Origin: Pseudomonadota bacterium | Lineage (GTDB): Bacteria > Pseudomonadota > Alphaproteobacteria > Paracaedibacterales > CAITNM01 | Reading direction: 5' to 3' | Length of the DNA: 64,000 bases | Assembly (NCBI GenBank): GCA_018062345.1 | Contig: JAGOSL010000002.1 | Span: forward strand, 32,541 to 96,540 | Shown here: positions 11,368 through 30,914 of the stretch, in pieces | How positions within the stretch are numbered: the first letter of the stretch is position 1 | Layout: every line of letters starts with the position of its first letter | Position numbers and translations under genes: made by a program | The notes under the pieces: model-generated | Told to the model about the DNA's origin: nothing | The model's database searches: none | The model's input: the letters and a program-made list of their open reading frames with translations, nothing else

Positions 11368-13422
11368 ATGAGTAAAAAATTATTAATTGACGCAGCTCAT
11401 GTTGAGGAAACGCGAGTTGCTGTCGTTGACGACACTTATCTTGAGGAGTTTGACTCTGAACATTTTAGTAAGAAACAGCTGAAGTCCAATATATACCTAG
11501 CAAAGGTTGTGCGCATAGAGCCTTCTCTGCAGGCAGCATTTGTTGAGTATGGGGGAGACAAACATGGTTTTTTACCTTTTTCTGAGATTCACCCTGATTA
11601 TTATAGAATTCCTGTATCGGATAGAAAAGTTATGCCGCAGGAGTCGCTTAAGGAGAATTTAGAAACTAATACGCTGGATAATGATGATGTTGCTGAAGAG
11701 GCTGATGCGCCAGTAAAACAAAAACGAAGTTATAAGTACAAGATTCAAGAAGTTATTCAAAAACGTCAAATTTTACTAGTACAGATAGTAAAAGAGCAGC
11801 GAGGAAACAAAGGGGCTGCTTTATCCACATTTTTATCACTAGCTGGACGTTACTGCGTGCTTATACCAAATGCAGGCAACCGGAATGGTGGAATTTCTCG
11901 TAAAATACAAGATGATTCTGACCGCAAGCGATTAAAAGAAGTTTTAAATGATTTAGAGATTCCTGAAGGAATGAGCCTGATTGTGCGGACAGCTGGTCAA
12001 GAGCGGTCAAAAATTGAGATACGGCGAGATTATGATTATTTGATTCATGTGTGGGAAGAAATTCGTTCTAAAACTTTAGAGTCTATAGCTCCGTGTTTGA
12101 TTCATGAAGAAGGCGATCTTGTTAAGCGCGCTATTCGTGATATTTATACACGAGAAATAGATGAGGTTCTTATCGAAGGCGAAGATGCATACAAAGAAGC
12201 AAAAGCTTTCATGAAGATTTTAATGCCAAGCCATGCAAAGAAAGTAAAACTTTACAAAGATGAGCAGGTTCCATTATTTCATAAATTTAAAGTAGAACAA
12301 CACATTGAGAAAATGATGTTCCCAAAGGTGGATTTAGCTTCAGGGGGCTCTATTGTCATCAATCATACAGAGGCATTAGTTGCGATTGATGTGAACTCAG
12401 GGAAATCTACGCGCGAGCGTAATATTGATGTTACTGCGCTAAAAACAAATTTAGAAGCAGCGCAAGAAATTGCTCGTCAGTTGCGTTTACGTGATCTATC
12501 TGGATTGCTGGTTATTGACTTTATTGACATGGATGATAATAACCATATTCAACAAGTTGAGCGCAAATTTAAAGAAGCCTTAAAACCAGATCGCGCGCGC
12601 ATTCAGTTAGGAAGAATTAGCCAGTTTGGATTGCTTGAGTTATCTCGCCAGCGCCTGCGACCAAGTTTGATTGAAACACATACATCTCCCTGTGCTCATT
12701 GTCATGGAACAGGCATCGTTCGTTCAACAGAATCTTTATCGCTTCAAATATTGCGAGCAATAGAGCGTGAAGCTGTAAAAGGAAGAGCCGCCGACATACA
12801 GGTTGCTGTTCCAAAGGACGTTGACTTATATCTGTTAAATCAAAAACGCCGAGAAATTATATTAATAGAGAATCGTTTCGACGTTTCAATTTTTGTGGTT
12901 CGGGAAGATATTTCCTTGGCTCCTTTTTTCCGTATAGATATTTTGAGCGTAAAAGAAGGCGCCCTTCTTAAGGGTAGTGAAGAAGCTGAAGAGATAAAAG
13001 AAGCGCCAGGTGCAAAAAAAGGAAAGGCATCTTCGCAGGAAGCCGTGGTTGAAAAGTCTGAAGATTCTCAAGATTTTCATCAAAAGAGACACAGACATAA
13101 GAGAAAGCATGCTGCGTATAAGAAGAGCGCTCAGGTAGCGGATGCGGGAGAGCAAGCAGCAACAGAAACAGTTGTGCAAAAACCTATCAAAAATCAACAG
13201 GCCGAAACCCATAGTGAAGAGAATGAGCAGGGCGATGATGCAACCTTAAGAAGTGCCGAAATAATTGCACCTCAATTTGGAAAAAAACGCCGTCGCTACC
13301 GTGGAAATCGCAAGCGTAAAGATGGTGTTGCTGAAGAAGGTAATGTAGCTAATACATTGCCAAAAACAGATAAACCAGAAACTTCTAAAAAAAAAAACTG
13401 GCTTAGGCGCTTGCTAGATTAA
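11368..13422 (+). CDS. rne: Ribonuclease E/G
   Basis: IDAAHVEETRVAVV, SNIYLAKVVRIEPSLQAAFVEYG, AIDVNSG, VIDFIDM, CAHCHGTG zinc link; charged C-terminal tail. Confidence 0.97.
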   Translation: MSKKLLIDAAHVEETRVAVVDDTYLEEFDSEHFSKKQLKSNIYLAKVVRIEPSLQAAFVEYGGDKHGFLPFSEIHPDYYRIPVSDRKVMPQESLKENLETNTLDNDDVAEEADAPVKQKRSYKYKIQEVIQKRQILLVQIVKEQRGNKGAALSTFLSLAGRYCVLIPNAGNRNGGISRKIQDDSDRKRLKEVLNDLEIPEGMSLIVRTAGQERSKIEIRRDYDYLIHVWEEIRSKTLESIAPCLIHEEGDLVKRAIRDIYTREIDEVLIEGEDAYKEAKAFMKILMPSHAKKVKLYKDEQVPLFHKFKVEQHIEKMMFPKVDLASGGSIVINHTEALVAIDVNSGKSTRERNIDVTALKTNLEAAQEIARQLRLRDLSGLLVIDFIDMDDNNHIQQVERKFKEALKPDRARIQLGRISQFGLLELSRQRLRPSLIETHTSPCAHCHGTGIVRSTESLSLQILRAIEREAVKGRAADIQVAVPKDVDLYLLNQKRREIILIENRFDVSIFVVREDISLAPFFRIDILSVKEGALLKGSEEAEEIKEAPGAKKGKASSQEAVVEKSEDSQDFHQKRHRHKRKHAAYKKSAQVADAGEQAATETVVQKPIKNQQAETHSEENEQGDDATLRSAEIIAPQFGKKRRRYRGNRKRKDGVAEEGNVANTLPKTDKPETSKKKNWLRRLLD

Positions 13423-14768
13423 CCACCTATTGAATTTAGTGCGTCATACAGCTCGTCTATAGAATTAAAGACAGTTGTCATGTTGTTGAATCGTTGAAGG
13501 CGTTCTATCATTTGTGCCATTTGAGGGATAATTTCGACAGTACTACTTTCAAGGGCGCCGACAGCTACTTTTCCGGCAGAATTTTCACCTATGTAACAAT
13601 AGGTGACATCTCCTGAGCCTTTGTTGTATGTTGTGTTTCCGATAGTTTCTTTACTGTTATTTTGCAGATAAAGTCCCTTTTCTAGCATTTCTAATCCATC
13701 TGGGTTATTGAAGCACCCTACTACTAAACGTCCTATGAGTTCAGATTTTCCATTATCAAAGTTTCCGTAAATATTGCCATTCTCATCAAAATTTAATGTC
13801 TTAAAGGCGCCAGAGGTTTGCCCATTAACTTGAACTTGCAATCGAGACTGCCCGCCGTTTATGACTATTACGCCGTCTGGTTGACCAACTGTTCCAAGGT
13901 TCATGGATGGAGTGATTGATGCGCCCCCTGGACATGTAATGTTTAAATCTGGTGGGGTAGCATTGCCATTAAATGAGAGAGGATATTTATTTGTGGGATC
14001 AAAATTTATGATAACCGGATTTGCTGGAACTGAATTTGAGGGGTCTCCAGCGCTGTATGCTCCATTTACTGTTGAGTTTGCGGGGGCTTGGATGGTTAAC
14101 GACCATGATTGCCCTGTGCCACTACTGTCTGCCCAATCAGCATTGCGTGTGAAAACATAATTTAGGGTGCGTGGAGTTCCTGAAGAATCATATACTGAGA
14201 CAGCCCTTGTAACGCTGCTTCCAATGTTACCTGAGAGACCACATCTGAACGTAATTTCTGAAGTTTGTATGGCGCTTGAGCTTAGGTTAGAGCTTGAGCA
14301 GTCCAGAACACTTAATGATGTGTTTGACAAATTTGTTGGTAGCACTCCATTTACAGCAGGAGCATACAGCAACTGCATGCCAAAATGATTTTGTATTTTA
14401 TTTTCTGCGTTGTAACCAAATGTTCCGACACGAGTAAAATACTGATTACCATTTGCATCTTGTACAGGGAAAAAAGAGGCATCTCCTAATAGTGACAAAT
14501 GAGTATCTACTTGAGAACTGACAGGTGCGCCAGCACCTCGAATATGATAGTGGACATTATTTTCCAAAATTCCAGCAGATTCTCCGCCCATATAAGAGTA
14601 ATAGACATTTTGAAATGTATGACGAGATCGTCCTGCAACGGTTGCTTCGGCAGCTAAGTTATGGGCCGTATCGTTAGTGGATTTTGCTGTATTGTTTAAG
14701 GCAATAGCGTCTCTATTTAGAGCGCCTGCTAAGGTTGAATTATCAAATCTTGGTACTAAATCTGACAT
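13419..14768 (-). CDS. flgE: Divergent flagellar hook protein FlgE
   Basis: THLSLLGDASFFPVQDANGNQYFTRVGTF, FKTLNFDENGNIYGNFDNG, FNNPDGLE, GALESSTV hook motifs; follows flgD. Confidence 0.8.
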   Translation of the reverse strand: MSDLVPRFDNSTLAGALNRDAIALNNTAKSTNDTAHNLAAEATVAGRSRHTFQNVYYSYMGGESAGILENNVHYHIRGAGAPVSSQVDTHLSLLGDASFFPVQDANGNQYFTRVGTFGYNAENKIQNHFGMQLLYAPAVNGVLPTNLSNTSLSVLDCSSSNLSSSAIQTSEITFRCGLSGNIGSSVTRAVSVYDSSGTPRTLNYVFTRNADWADSSGTGQSWSLTIQAPANSTVNGAYSAGDPSNSVPANPVIINFDPTNKYPLSFNGNATPPDLNITCPGGASITPSMNLGTVGQPDGVIVINGGQSRLQVQVNGQTSGAFKTLNFDENGNIYGNFDNGKSELIGRLVVGCFNNPDGLEMLEKGLYLQNNSKETIGNTTYNKGSGDVTYCYIGENSAGKVAVGALESSTVEIIPQMAQMIERLQRFNNMTTVFNSIDELYDALNSIGG

Positions 14769-15571
14769 TAGGCAACCTCATCTACGCTTTTTGCAAGTAC
14801 GGAGGGGTCTCCACTGTAAATGGAAAGCATCTGTCTGATTGGTTGATTTCCGCTGTAGTAAACAGGTTTCCCATTAGCTGGGTCAGGACGAACTTCCTGT
14901 ATTCTTTTTGGAATATAAGATGGAATGATTGCGCTTTTTCCTTCTTCGTCTGTAATGGTGGCATGAACAATGTATTGACCATGTTTTGCAACCTCTCCAT
15001 CTTTGTCCAAACCATCCCAGTTTATATACTGAATGCCTGGTTGACTGTTTGATGTCCATTCTCTTGTTATCAACCCTTTTTCATCAATTAAAGCAACTTG
15101 TACGATGCCTTCTTGTTCAGGAATATCAATAGCAAGGTCAGTGGTTTTACCTTTAAATTCAATTCTGTGATCTTTAACTAAGGCTTCTCTTCCTACGTTT
15201 CTGGACATTGATACAAATAAATTGTGCAGACCTATTTTATTGCCATCTTCTTGCAGGGCGACGCGTTGCATGTTGCCTGTTGCATTGAGCATATCTAGCA
15301 TGCTTCTTAACATGTCTGTAGTATTGAATTTATCATCACCCAGTGGGACCCGCCCCTTTACGTAGGCCAACACCATTTCTTGAATACCTCTGACGGTTTT
15401 TTTTATATCTTTTTCTAGTTGGCTACTTTCTCCGTTTCTGAGCGTATCAATGTCAGGACTTTTTACCAAATCGTCAAAGGGAGTCCCGCTAGATTTTGTT
15501 TCTTTTGGATGATAATTTTCTAATTTGATATTAGAGCGAAATTCCTGAGATCCTATGACATTAGAGGGCAT
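14768..15571 (-). CDS. flgD: Divergent flagellar hook-capping protein FlgD
   Basis: FlgD Ig domain VQVALIDEKG...YINWDGLDKDGEVAKHGQY; located between fliK-like and flgE. Confidence 0.75.
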   Translation of the reverse strand: MPSNVIGSQEFRSNIKLENYHPKETKSSGTPFDDLVKSPDIDTLRNGESSQLEKDIKKTVRGIQEMVLAYVKGRVPLGDDKFNTTDMLRSMLDMLNATGNMQRVALQEDGNKIGLHNLFVSMSRNVGREALVKDHRIEFKGKTTDLAIDIPEQEGIVQVALIDEKGLITREWTSNSQPGIQYINWDGLDKDGEVAKHGQYIVHATITDEEGKSAIIPSYIPKRIQEVRPDPANGKPVYYSGNQPIRQMLSIYSGDPSVLAKSVDEVA

Positions 15572-15581
15572 TTTATGTTCC

Positions 15582-16580
15582 TTACATGGTTGTTGATTTT
15601 GTTAAGCTTGTGCATTTGTTGAATTGCATTCTAGAAGAGTCGATGGTGTATCCTTCTTGAGTGATGATGTTCATAAATTCTTCACGGTGTTGGGCAAAAA
15701 GAGCAACGATTTGATCATTTGATCCTGTAAACATTACGCGAATTTTACCTTTATTTGCGTCATTAGGGTTTGCTTCTTTGCGATCGAAGCGCATGTGAAT
15801 ATCTACAATTCCTTCAGGGTGCTTGAGCGGGATCATGATATATGGATGTTGAGCATTTAGTTGCTGTTTGAATTTTTCTTTTACGTCTCGTAATGCTTCA
15901 ATTTCTTCCTTTTTTAATAGTTGAGCATTCTCATTTGGTGCTGTAGGGCTTACCTTTATAGATGATTTTGTTAGTTTTTGGTTTGCTTCACCAAATTTTT
16001 GCGAGTTACTTTCTTTATTATTATCTTGGTGCTGAGTGCGCTCATGAACTGCGCCAACTAATCCCATTGAAATTTGTTCGATGTCTGTTGGATTTGCGCT
16101 AGTTGATAGAATAAGGGGGTCTATTGTTGTGCGGGGTCCATAACCCTTATCTATTGTATATTTTTGTGGTTGAATCGATGGGGCTGAGCTTAAAACTTCT
16201 ATAAGTTTGGGGGTATCAGTAGGGAGAATTCTTCCGATCTTGTCTAAAGGCAGTATTGATTCAAGTTTTATCTCTGGCTGTTTGGCGTGATGATCGCTGG
16301 TTGTTTTTTGTAATGGGGCATTTTCTGGCCCAAAACGTTGATTTTGCATTGTGGCAGTTACTTCTGTCGCTATAAGAAAATTTTCTTGAAGATGTGAAGA
16401 TGAGCTGGCCAGAAACGATGTAAAATCCTGATGAATTGGAGCACGAAGACCCTCCCCTTTTATTTGGGAGGAAAATTTTGCATCAATCTGAGTTTGAGGT
16501 ACTACAATTTCTTTTTCATTTTGATTAATGCGCGCAAGTGTTTGAGCTTTCGCTCCATGAAGCGATAGTGATTGCACCAT
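15582..16580 (-). CDS. fliK: Flagellar hook-length control protein FliK-like
   Basis: Low-complexity Pro/Gln/Ser/Thr N-region and a C-terminal T3S4-like domain (IPLKHPEGIVDIHMRF...IRVMFTG...HREEFMNIITQEG); fliK-flgD-flgE order. Confidence 0.7.
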   Translation of the reverse strand: MVQSLSLHGAKAQTLARINQNEKEIVVPQTQIDAKFSSQIKGEGLRAPIHQDFTSFLASSSSHLQENFLIATEVTATMQNQRFGPENAPLQKTTSDHHAKQPEIKLESILPLDKIGRILPTDTPKLIEVLSSAPSIQPQKYTIDKGYGPRTTIDPLILSTSANPTDIEQISMGLVGAVHERTQHQDNNKESNSQKFGEANQKLTKSSIKVSPTAPNENAQLLKKEEIEALRDVKEKFKQQLNAQHPYIMIPLKHPEGIVDIHMRFDRKEANPNDANKGKIRVMFTGSNDQIVALFAQHREEFMNIITQEGYTIDSSRMQFNKCTSLTKSTTM

Positions 16581-16616
16581 AACTTAAACCCTTTTTTGCA
16601 TTAATATCGAGGTACA

Positions 16617-16633
16617 TGCAAGGGCTGTGCCAG
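16617..16633 (-). promoter_or_regulatory. Sigma54 (RpoN) -24/-12 promoter of fliK-flgD-flgE
   Basis: Minus strand CTGGCAC-AGCCC-TTGCA is an exact TGGCAC-N5-TTGCA consensus, 36 nt upstream of the fliK ATG. Confidence 0.85.
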
Positions 16634-16637
16634 GGCA

Positions 16638-16670
16638 ATAAAAAAGCCCCGTACAAGACGAGGCTTTATA
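16638..16670 (-). terminator. Intrinsic terminator after the small secreted protein gene
   Basis: Minus strand AAAGCCTCGT-CTTGT-ACGGGGCTTT followed by a T tract. Confidence 0.8.
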
Positions 16671-16689: not shown

Positions 16690-16917
16690 TTATTTCTTTT
16701 CTTCTTTTTCTTCTTTAGCACCAGCAACAACTTCTGTTGCAGCTTTTTTGTCATCAACAGGTGCAGTAACGGCTTCAGCTGTAGTTGCAGCTTTTTCTTC
16801 TACTTTTGATTCTGTAGTAGTTACATCAGCTTTAACTTCAGCTTTTGACTCTGTAGTAGTTGCAGCTACAAGTGCAGCTGTAGAAATAGCAAGAATAGCA
16901 AGAGCTTGCTTTAACAT
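16690..16917 (-). CDS. Small secreted low-complexity protein (T/E/K/A-rich)
   Basis: RBS-like AAGGAG upstream; signal peptide MLKQALAILAISTAALVA; TTTESK twice; has its own terminator. Confidence 0.8.
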   Translation of the reverse strand: MLKQALAILAISTAALVAATTTESKAEVKADVTTTESKVEEKAATTAEAVTAPVDDKKAATEVVAGAKEEKEEKK

Positions 16918-16997
16918 GGAATTCTCCTTAGATTGATTGAAATAAAAACTTACAGGGTCATTCTATTGATCGTAAAGATCGTTGACAAGGGGGAATC

Positions 16998-17682: not shown

Positions 17683-18402
17683 TTAGCTAAAAGTTTGGTT
17701 AGAGTTATTGTTTGGTAAGGCAAATTTCAAGAGTGCGTGTTCTGTAGATTGGGCGCCAAGCTTTTTTCGAATATTTTTTAAGTGAAATGTGATTGTTGCT
17801 TGAGAGACACCCAGTTTGTGACTGATTGTTTTAACCGCGATGCCTTCTGATTTTTGAACAAGAATTTCAATCTCTCTTTCTGTTAAGCATTTAAGGGCTT
17901 GATTGTCTCGGATAGACATGATTTTGCTGGCGCAGATATTTGCAGCTGAAGAAAGAGTGTACAAAATTTCAGGACGCAAGGATGAAGTGTTTGCAACTGT
18001 TGCAAAACCATGAAAGTTTGGGTGAGGTATTAGAGGAATTGTTTCTCCTGATTTTATGCCAAAATCATAAGCCTCTCTCATTAATGTTTGTTGAATAGGT
18101 AAAAGATTCCTAAAGCTGTTCGTGCTCCATTCAAAAGGGGCTGCTACTTTTTTTAATGTGTCAAATACAGGATCATGCAGATGATATTGCTCTTCTTCAT
18201 AGCGATGCACCCATTCTTTTGGGTAAGTGGTGTAAAGACAAAAAGATTCGATAATGTTTTGTTTTCCTGAAAAAACTGCAAGAGCAAAACTTTCAATATC
18301 AAAGTCGTTGCAAATATCTTTGAAAGTAGCAAAAATTTTTTCCTCAGAGTTTCCAATGCTATTGATTTTTTCAATAACCATACCTATTTTCTTATTTTTC
18401 AT
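17683..18402 (-). CDS. LuxR-family quorum-sensing regulator (solo; autoinducer-binding domain plus HTH)
   Basis: YPKEWVHRY...HDPV...PFEW...FGIKSG and LTEREIEILVQKSEG...VSQATITFHLKNIRKKLG; no luxI nearby. Confidence 0.9.
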   Translation of the reverse strand: MKNKKIGMVIEKINSIGNSEEKIFATFKDICNDFDIESFALAVFSGKQNIIESFCLYTTYPKEWVHRYEEEQYHLHDPVFDTLKKVAAPFEWSTNSFRNLLPIQQTLMREAYDFGIKSGETIPLIPHPNFHGFATVANTSSLRPEILYTLSSAANICASKIMSIRDNQALKCLTEREIEILVQKSEGIAVKTISHKLGVSQATITFHLKNIRKKLGAQSTEHALLKFALPNNNSNQTFS

Positions 18403-30564: not shown

Positions 30565-30580
30565 TGGCATAAAATTTGCA
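30565..30580 (+). promoter_or_regulatory. Sigma54 -24/-12 promoter upstream of the orphan lipoprotein
   Basis: TGGCAT-AAAAT-TTGCA with exact GG-N10-GC spacing, 13 nt before the ATG at 30594. Confidence 0.75.
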
Positions 30581-30593
30581 TGATGTGGTAACT

Positions 30594-30914
30594 ATGAAAA
30601 AAATTATAAAAATTATGCCCTTGCTTATATTGGTATGTTTGGTACTTAGTGGTTGTAATCCTTTTGGTGCATTTCGTCCAACTTCTGACGAAATACAAAG
30701 TTCTAGTTGGGCTCCAAACCCAGATGATCCATACAAAAAAAAGAGGCAAAAACAACAGTTATATTGCTATCGAACTTTAGGAGACCCTGTGTGCTATGAT
30801 CATGAATTGGGCGAAAGTGAGCGTTATAGGTTGATAGGTAAAACTGCTGATCCAGTTGAAAAGGATCCAACTGTACCAGCTATTTTAAGTTGGATACCGT
30901 TTCCGCTTCGCTAA
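30594..30914 (+). CDS. Hypothetical lipoprotein
   Basis: MKKIIKIMPLLILVCLVLSG-C lipobox; Cys pair in YCYRTLGDPVCY. Confidence 0.8.
   Translation: MKKIIKIMPLLILVCLVLSGCNPFGAFRPTSDEIQSSSWAPNPDDPYKKKRQKQQLYCYRTLGDPVCYDHELGESERYRLIGKTADPVEKDPTVPAILSWIPFPLR

Follow-up and report, generated by a model that had tools for sequence, protein, structure and literature searches.

In the flagellar hook, the D0 helices of the hook protein FlgE make packing contacts among themselves as well as with the FlgD cap and FlgK, and the N-terminus of FliK contacts FlgD and the hook interior. In Caulobacter-type hierarchies, the class III and class IV flagellar genes are driven by sigma54 and FlbD. Buchnera aphidicola has a flagellum that is reduced to a hook-basal-body export device, and it has no flagellin or motor genes. 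Several Holosporineae carry flagellar genes, for which conditional expression for transmission, and possibly a role in secretion, has been hypothesised (PMC11909080). The flagellar genes that such obligate symbionts retain have been discussed as encoding conditionally expressed transmission organelles (PMC11909080; PMC8163844). Here we describe the hook genes fliK, flgD and flgE on a stretch of 64,000 nucleotides (nt) of contig JAGOSL010000002.1, which we call the window and to which all coordinates refer unless another contig is given. The source is a Finniella-like (Holosporales, Paracaedibacteraceae-type) endosymbiont of protists, and its relatives are Candidatus Finniella and metagenome-assembled genomes (MAGs). 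The three genes very probably form a conventional class III hook-assembly operon of a complete flagellum, which has evolved fast and is under selection. Support for this conclusion comes from the identity of the genes, the fold, the selection acting on them, the layout of the regulon and the phylogenetic history, and the operon is a new sequence variant of a known hook system.

When compared with the FliK-FlgD-FlgE system of Salmonella and Escherichia coli (6K9Q, 7CBM, 9GO6), the proteins in the window have the same FlgE domain plan (D0 helices, Dc, D1 and D2), an immunoglobulin-like (Ig-like) domain in FlgD, a disordered ruler with a C-terminal domain in FliK, and an FxxxΦ motif at the position of FlhB docking. 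They differ in that FlgE, FlgD and FliK give no matches to PF00460, PF03963 and PF02120, respectively, and in that the operon is driven by sigma54 rather than being a class 2 operon under sigma70 and FlhDC. With the Caulobacter-type hierarchy, the source genome shares the layout of the fliF-fliG-fliH-fliN-flbD-flhA cluster, an FlbD-type activator with a degenerate receiver, and sigma54 promoters on rod, ring, hook and flagellin genes. Unlike that hierarchy, it has FliW and CsrA and no chemotaxis genes. Other Holosporineae, such as Candidatus Hepatobacter penaei and Candidatus Bodocaedibacter vickermanii, are likewise obligate symbionts that keep flagellar genes. Genomes of sister families share the operon layout, the promoter and the derived FlgE N-terminus. 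Change in the FlgD N-terminus and in FliK went further in the Finniella family, which stands behind a stem of 1.3 substitutions per site.

The three genes are intact open reading frames (ORFs) that lie head to tail on the minus strand, with fliK at 15582..16580 (332 amino acids [aa]), flgD at 14768..15571 (267 aa) and flgE at 13419..14768 (449 aa). There are 10 nt between fliK and flgD, flgD and flgE overlap by 1 nt in an ATGA, and the 3' end of flgE reaches 4 nt into the convergent rne gene. The sigma54 (-24/-12) promoter of the operon, TGGCACAGCCCTTGCA, lies at 16617..16632 on the minus strand. It matches TGGCAC-N5-TTGCA exactly and carries the GG and GC elements at a spacing of 10 nt. The first ATG, that of fliK, follows after 36 nt, and the promoter itself immediately follows the hairpin terminator (16643-16667) by which a small upstream gene ends. 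In all 10 syntenic relatives examined (L001-L005, L030-L033 and L035), the same motif is found 45-55 nt 5' of the fliK orthologue. The order birA, small secreted protein, sigma54 promoter, fliK, flgD, flgE and then convergent rne is conserved throughout the genus, and the unit from the promoter to flgE is also kept in sister families. The number of motif matches is not significantly enriched over chance, either in the window (2 matches against 0.46 expected, with 12 of 100 shuffles reaching 2) or in the genome (14 matches of TGGCAY-N5-TTGCH against 11.1 ± 2.5 in simulations). Only the placement is informative, and placement and conservation together are far beyond chance. Judged by its position, its conservation and the presence of genes for RpoN and an activator, TGGCACAGCCCTTGCA is a real sigma54 promoter, from which the operon would be transcribed. 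The initial annotation of this stretch had reported three intact, tightly linked ORFs behind a TGGCAC-N5-TTGCA promoter, and both statements are confirmed; all the peptides that it quoted are also present. Just 5' of the promoter, at 16690-16917 on the minus strand, lies a gene whose 75-aa product has a signal peptide and consists of TTTESKAEVKA-like low-complexity repeats. It has its own sigma70-like promoter (16960-16988) and terminator, and its position is conserved in relatives, but not its sequence.

FlgE is identified by family models and by its fold. The protein scores 126.1 bits with TIGR03506, the model of the FlgE/F/G subfamily (cut-off, 70.25), 29.5 bits with the D1 model PF22692 (cut-off, 27) and 25.1 bits with the D2 model PF07559 (cut-off, 22.7). 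Its C-terminus is marginal for PF06429 (Flg_bbr_C; cut-off, 23), with 26.0 bits in a six-frame search of the genome and 21.6 bits in hmmscan. An AlphaFold (AF2) model of the single chain, made from a 53-sequence alignment, has a predicted local distance difference test score (pLDDT) of 78.9 and consists of a helix at residues 13-40, a disordered stretch at residues 45-73 (the Dc segment), β-rich D1 and D2 domains and a helix at residues 413-448. The top 12 matches of this model in the PDB are all FlgE chains, the best being full-length Salmonella FlgE in hooks, with an expectation value (E) of 3e-22 and a template-modelling score (TM) of 0.67-0.70; the identity to Salmonella FlgE in the fold matches is 18-19 %. 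In sequence the distance is large, as E. coli FlgE scores 25 bits against the window protein by phmmer, compared to a median of 112 for other hooks.

The hallmark motifs of FlgE had been described in the initial annotation as erased, which is not borne out. The N-terminal D0 helix (residues 13-44, 14637..14732 on the minus strand; helix predicted for residues 13-40) carries the derived motif AHNLAAEATVAGR. In the 53-sequence alignment N37, T43 and F52 are invariant between the FlgE clade and canonical FlgE, and AHNLAAEATVAGR can therefore be considered the degenerate counterpart of NNIANxxTxGYK. The C-terminal D0 helix (residues 401-449, 13422..13568 on the minus strand; helix predicted for residues 413-448) reads LESSTVE...MIERLQRF, and its LESSTVE...MIE..Q.F pattern is close to the alphaproteobacterial consensus LESSTVD...MI..Q.Y. 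Between the two, F52-Q-N-V-Y56 (14601..14615, minus strand) aligns with residues 39-43 of Salmonella and E. coli FlgE. In Salmonella, these residues form the FxxxΦ gate-recognition motif, by which early subunits dock on FlhB (PMC8983047), and F52-Y56 is a candidate export-docking motif that may act in the same way. The part of the earlier description that stands is the disproportionate divergence of the D0 ends. Between the window FlgE and canonical FlgEs, identity is 0.27 in the D0 N-helix (0.48 among canonical proteins), 0.12 in the linker after this helix (0.45), 0.27 in the D0 C-helix (0.47) and 0.24-0.25 in D2 (0.32). This indicates that the parts of FlgE that are normally best conserved have proportionally lost the most. 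Within the clade, the N-terminal D0 segment is the best-conserved region, with a conservation of 0.81 against 0.68 overall. The protein also has an N-terminal extension of 9-12 residues relative to Salmonella and E. coli FlgE.

The second gene encodes the hook cap, or scaffold, FlgD. Its Ig-like domain is recognised by PF13860 with 29.1 bits (cut-off, 27), the protein is colinear with FlgDs of sister families that bear both PF03963 and PF13860, and flgD lies directly upstream of flgE in a gene order that is conserved in all relatives. The derived N-terminal segment, residues 52-103 (15263..15418, minus strand), aligns with the PF03963 region of sister-family and E. coli FlgD, and P76 and M87 are nearly invariant in it. 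Within the genus this segment is almost invariant, whereas the whole protein is only 60-75 % identical. It includes I63-QEM-V67 (IQEMV), which aligns with FLTLL, the gate-recognition motif of Salmonella FlgD as positioned in previous work (PMC8983047). In both FlgE and FlgD, small hydrophobic residues are retained close to the N-terminus, 30 residues or more upstream of the motifs that align with FxxxΦ and FLTLL, a spacing that all rod and hook subunits have been reported to share (PMC8983047).

We consider the first gene the orthologue of fliK, which encodes the hook-length ruler and substrate-specificity switch. Across the order, this gene holds the first place of the hook operon in conserved synteny. 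Its orthologues in two sister families score 42-50 bits with PF02120, and the one in the sister genus has an E of 0.008. A profile of the clade's FliKs matches the FliKs of sister families in hhalign with a probability of 96.9 % and an E of 1.6e-10 over the C-terminal 118 columns; against E. coli FliK the probability is 0.2 %. In the AF2 model, residues 1-46 and 84-216 have a pLDDT below 50, and residues 217-322 (15615..15932, minus strand) are the only confident fold, with a pLDDT of about 80-86. By alignment these residues correspond to the PF02120 region of sister-family FliKs and of E. coli FliK, and they are a candidate T3S4 switch domain, after which the tail is short. A mostly disordered model with a folded C-terminal domain fits a ruler protein, as would be expected.

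The substitution pattern in the operon indicates strong purifying selection. The ratios of nonsynonymous to synonymous substitution rates (dN/dS), calculated by the Nei-Gojobori method and including unsaturated pairs with a dS of 0.03-0.23, are 0.07-0.10 for flgE, 0.02-0.2 for flgD and 0.15-0.24 for fliK. They resemble those of the housekeeping neighbours rne (0.08-0.21) and birA (0.11-0.23). The genus of the source genome is represented by 14 species genomes, and its family by 15. Sequence identity is 66-81 % inside the genus, drops to 43 % for the sister genus and does not exceed 33 % elsewhere. By maximum likelihood, the FlgEs of the family group with those of the order (support, 100/99), on a Finniella-family stem of 1.31 substitutions per site, compared to crown branches of 0.1-0.3. 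FlgEs of sister families are also without a PF00460 match and share the NLAA..A.A.[KR] form. In these sister families, FlgD_N and FliK domains can still be detected and the FlgE C-helix is less diverged, whereas neither the FlgD N-terminus nor FliK is recognised by Pfam in the Finniella family. Together with the tree, this comparison indicates three steps: a derived hook N-terminus that arose order-wide, a further burst along the Finniella-family stem, and subsequent constraint. The divergence extends to other axial proteins. Of the six expected to carry PF00460, only FlgF passes the threshold; FlgC and FlgG are below it, and FlgB, FlgE and FlgK show no match. FlgK is also without the C-terminal rod motif. 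The suggestion in the initial annotation that hook, cap and ruler diverged in a coordinated way is supported, most strongly for the terminal segments. Our best-supported reading is that partners that interact with each other co-evolved in this lineage and that the unusual sequences are the record of it.

The remainder of the flagellar gene set is present in the genome, which is 99.8 % complete and has a size of 1.46 Mb. We found flgB-flgC (beside csrA on contig C16), flgF-G-A-H and fliE, a cluster of fliF-G-H-N, flbD and flhA, fliL-M, fliQ-R with flhB, fliO-P, fliI, flgI, flgJ, flgN, flgK, flgL and fliW. MotA scores 229 bits, MotB 167 bits and FliD 57.5 bits. Three tandem flagellins score 137-151 bits, and a fourth, divergent flagellin-like gene (C25:124910-126286, 458 aa; Flagellin_N, 29 bits; Flagellin_C, 22 bits) lies away from this cluster and is conserved in most genomes of the genus. 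The genes for FlgK, FlgL and then FliW are located at C20:3595-6951, about 26-29 kb upstream of the start of the window. FlgK (656 aa) has an FlgK_D1 match of 79 bits and neither N- nor C-terminal rod motifs, and FlgL (297 aa) barely passes Flagellin_N, which indicates that the junction proteins share the terminal divergence. The presence of fliW and csrA probably points to translational control of flagellin of the FliW/CsrA type. Searches of the genome with E. coli queries missed short or divergent families, including flgB, flgD, fliE, fliH, fliK, flgK/L, fliD, fliS and others; several of these were recovered by gene neighbourhood and Pfam, with FlgB, FliH and FliO assigned by position only. 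The flgE frame is intact in most genomes of the family. Three genomes of the genus (G013, G018 and G022) have no flgE and no flagellin. In two of them, G013 and G018, only fragments of FlhA are found (ORFs of 169-214 aa), and G022 has no match, compared to about 840 bits in the other genomes of the family. The joint absence of flgE, flagellin and intact flhA shows that the flagellar system is kept or lost as a unit, and these three genomes represent wholesale loss within the genus. In a related MAG (L001/G012) flgE contains an in-frame TAG, and in L005, a low-coverage MAG labelled Candidatus Odyssella sp., the frames of fliK and flgE are split; both cases may reflect assembly errors or incipient loss.

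The hook operon shares its type of promoter with the filament genes. The genome encodes RpoN (DNA-binding domain, 195 bits) and an FlbD-type activator (C25:44720-46024; Sigma54_activat, 230 bits) with a GSFTGA loop and a degenerate receiver domain. This is the only activator in the genome with a GAFTGA-type loop; NtrX, which is encoded in the window beside NtrY (7360-8751, plus strand), is without it. Nine of the 14 genome-wide promoter-motif matches are intergenic. Eight of the 14 lie 11-72 nt 5' of flagellar genes, namely, the three flagellins, flgF, flgI, flgJ-N-K-L (with the site inside the 3' end of flgI), fliK-D-E and a gene for an SLT-domain protein. The latter (C17:198199-198984), with the motif 39 nt upstream, encodes a 248-aa signal-peptide protein whose SLT domain scores 38.8 bits. 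FlgJ is here only a 126-aa rod-binding protein. A single-domain FlgJ of this kind needs a separate flagellar muramidase (SltF/PleA type), a role that the SLT protein likely fills. A second sigma54 motif in the window, TGGCATAAAATTTGCA, stands 11 nt before a gene (30576-30914; with the motif, 30565-30914, plus strand) whose product, a lipobox protein of 112 aa, carries a YCYRTLGDPVCY motif and has no Pfam match. No other intergenic sigma54 site in the genome is without a recognisable flagellar gene downstream, and this orphan lipoprotein could be a lineage-specific component of the flagellum or of a transmission stage. As only the FlbD-type protein has a competent loop, the placement of the motifs indicates that sigma54 is essentially flagellar here and that hook operon and filament genes are regulated together. 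RpoN thus seems to serve almost only flagellar genes.

From these results we infer how the operon would be used, from transcription and export docking to assembly of the hook. RpoN, together with the one FlbD-type activator, whose gene lies in the fliF-flhA cluster, would fire the TGGCAC-N5-TTGCA promoter, giving a transcript that encodes FliK (a disordered ruler with a C-terminal switch), the FlgD cap and the FlgE subunit with its D0 helices, D1 and D2. After docking on FlhB via the retained FxxxΦ-type motif, the subunits would pass the FlhAB-FliPQR gate and, beneath the FlgD cap, polymerise onto the FlgG rod. Export would then be switched by FliK to FlgK/L, FliD and the flagellins, which sit behind the same type of promoter. 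The sequence divergence goes back to an order-wide derived FlgE N-terminus, followed by the burst on the Finniella stem, in which the FlgD N-terminus, FliK and the termini of FlgK also dropped out of reach of Pfam, with strong purifying selection since. The flagellum, which is without chemotaxis control, is probably made conditionally, for example during host-to-host transfer.

Several observations weigh against a conventional hook operon. In FlgE, PF00460 (Flg_bb_rod) gives no match at E ≤ 0.1-1, and the protein stays below every NCBIfam FlgE equivalog model (NF004242 and others), the best score being 129.7 bits against a cut-off of 365. No match to PF03963, the FlgD N-terminal domain, was found in FlgD by Pfam. 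The first ORF has no direct Pfam or NCBIfam match, with PF02120 failing; the clade profile of this protein finds only chance caspase matches among PDB sequences, and Foldseek with its AF2 model finds nothing in the PDB at E < 0.4. With direct family, PDB sequence and fold searches empty, the FliK call rests on synteny and transitive homology. FlgE, modelled here as a single chain, would have to polymerise through its re-coded D0 core into an 11-protofilament hook on FlgG. No CheA, CheW or methyl-accepting chemotaxis protein (MCP) genes were found in the genome. Expression evidence is weak: in four RNA-type runs, a few read-sized contigs fall on flgE, flgD and fliK, and one metatranscriptome contig spans the promoter. 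These contigs have neither direction nor ends, and as they are only read-sized, DNA carry-over or read-through is possible and they cannot be used as evidence for transcription. Finally, among the Holosporineae flagella have been observed only in Candidatus Hepatobacter penaei (PMC11909080), and none have been seen in this lineage.

The initial annotation had proposed that the hook module is part of a repurposed apparatus, a flagellum-derived secretion or adhesion needle that acts on the host rather than in swimming. The parallel would be the hook-basal bodies of the Buchnera type. Like Buchnera, the source is an intracellular symbiont, in this case an obligate one, that has flagellar genes and no chemotaxis genes, and the FlgE D0 termini, the FlgD N-terminus, FliK and the FlgK termini did diverge together, after which the derived N-terminal segments of FlgE and FlgD were fixed. 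However, parts that a needle could dispense with are all kept, including the 3-4 flagellins, FliD, FlgK/L, FliW/CsrA, MotAB, FliG/M/N and the L and P rings. Unlike in Buchnera, the flagellins, FliD, FlgK/L and MotAB are intact, so that the loss of flagellin, filament cap and stator genes that would mark a secretion-only device of this type is not seen. An inventory of the genome had been suggested as a check on the needle, with a full conventional flagellar and chemotaxis set speaking against it; the flagellar half of this set was found and the chemotaxis half was not, which makes this result mixed. The fold of FlgE is an ordinary hook fold with a normal D2, and its derived N-terminus is order-wide and not tied to the source genome. 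The flagellins share the promoter type of the hook operon, and hook, flagellin and FlhA are lost jointly. For host interaction a type VI secretion system (T6SS) is available (TssK/VasE, 103 bits, 513-1841 on the minus strand). With filament, junction, cap, stator and ring genes intact in a shared regulon, and with the N-terminus derived order-wide, a needle is not supported and we regard it as very unlikely. A somewhat better, although still improbable, alternative is that the flagellum is complete but that its main role is host entry, transmission or non-flagellar export and not directed swimming, with the re-coded hook, cap and ruler as an adaptation to this role. Such roles have been hypothesised for professional symbionts (PMC11909080), the motor and filament genes are intact without chemotaxis genes, one sigma54 site drives the orphan lipoprotein, and a burst followed by strong constraint fits an adaptive shift. 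Compensatory co-evolution following a bottleneck would be just as likely to leave such a burst and constraint, no non-flagellar substrate emerged as a candidate, and nothing in the sequences specifies a new function. A more specific version, to which we give a similarly small chance, is that FliK, FlgD, FlgE and probably FlgK were re-coded as one co-adapted unit. This unit would have a new D0 packing and an N-terminal recognition code that mismatches canonical partners, as part of a functional shift of the chemotaxis-less flagellum away from free swimming to host entry or export, with the orphan lipoprotein (30576-30914) as a lineage-specific component.

The low Pfam and NCBIfam scores could also mean that the hook genes are relics drifting to pseudogenes in a reduced genome, as some congeners have lost the flagellar system, one MAG has the in-frame TAG in flgE and another has broken frames. 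Against this, the dN/dS values of 0.07-0.24 are those of housekeeping neighbours and well away from decay, in agreement with the selection that the initial annotation had inferred. The frames are intact in most genomes of the family, the promoter is conserved, and the most derived segments are the most conserved ones. Decay is rejected by the purifying dN/dS; this explanation was already largely refuted, and we give it almost no credence. Hardly more credible is a foreign origin, in which a hook module acquired horizontally from a distant lineage replaced the native one. This would explain the large identity gap between the genus (66-81 %), the sister genus (43 %) and all others (at most 33 %), but the placement of FlgE within the order (100/99) led us to reject horizontal transfer. 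The sigma54-fliK-flgD-flgE layout is common to the order, the derived NLAA..A motif is shared with sister families, and the GC content is unremarkable.

A fast-evolved hook operon of this kind has consequences for annotation. The first gene and about 25 relatives in the databases, now nameless or called 'hypothetical protein', can be named FliK, and the FlgE of this order escapes the Flg_bb_rod model. The lineage may also be regarded as a natural experiment, in which the D0 and cap segments that are normally the most conserved were rewritten once and then frozen, and the FxxxΦ motif, N37 and T43 survived. It thereby separates indispensable residues from those that are merely conserved. The genome is also a clean case of a complete flagellum without chemotaxis, with a sigma54 regulon that is almost purely flagellar. 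This flagellum is kept by most members of a cosmopolitan genus of protist endosymbionts and was lost wholesale in a few. Near-identical DNA is present in metagenomes from wastewater, a lake, drinking water and mine tailings.

Other genes in and near the window may be of interest with respect to the host. Just upstream on contig C20, ORFs of 1426 aa and 264 aa are TssM- and TssL-like by size and position alone, and the 264-aa ORF enters the window as the open-ended ORF 1-516. About 1 kb upstream of the hook operon, at 17683-18402 on the minus strand, lies a gene for a LuxR-family protein with autoinducer-binding and GerE domains and a weak VisN-like match. This gene is syntenic in L001 and L030, and its product could be a flagellar or host-signal regulator.

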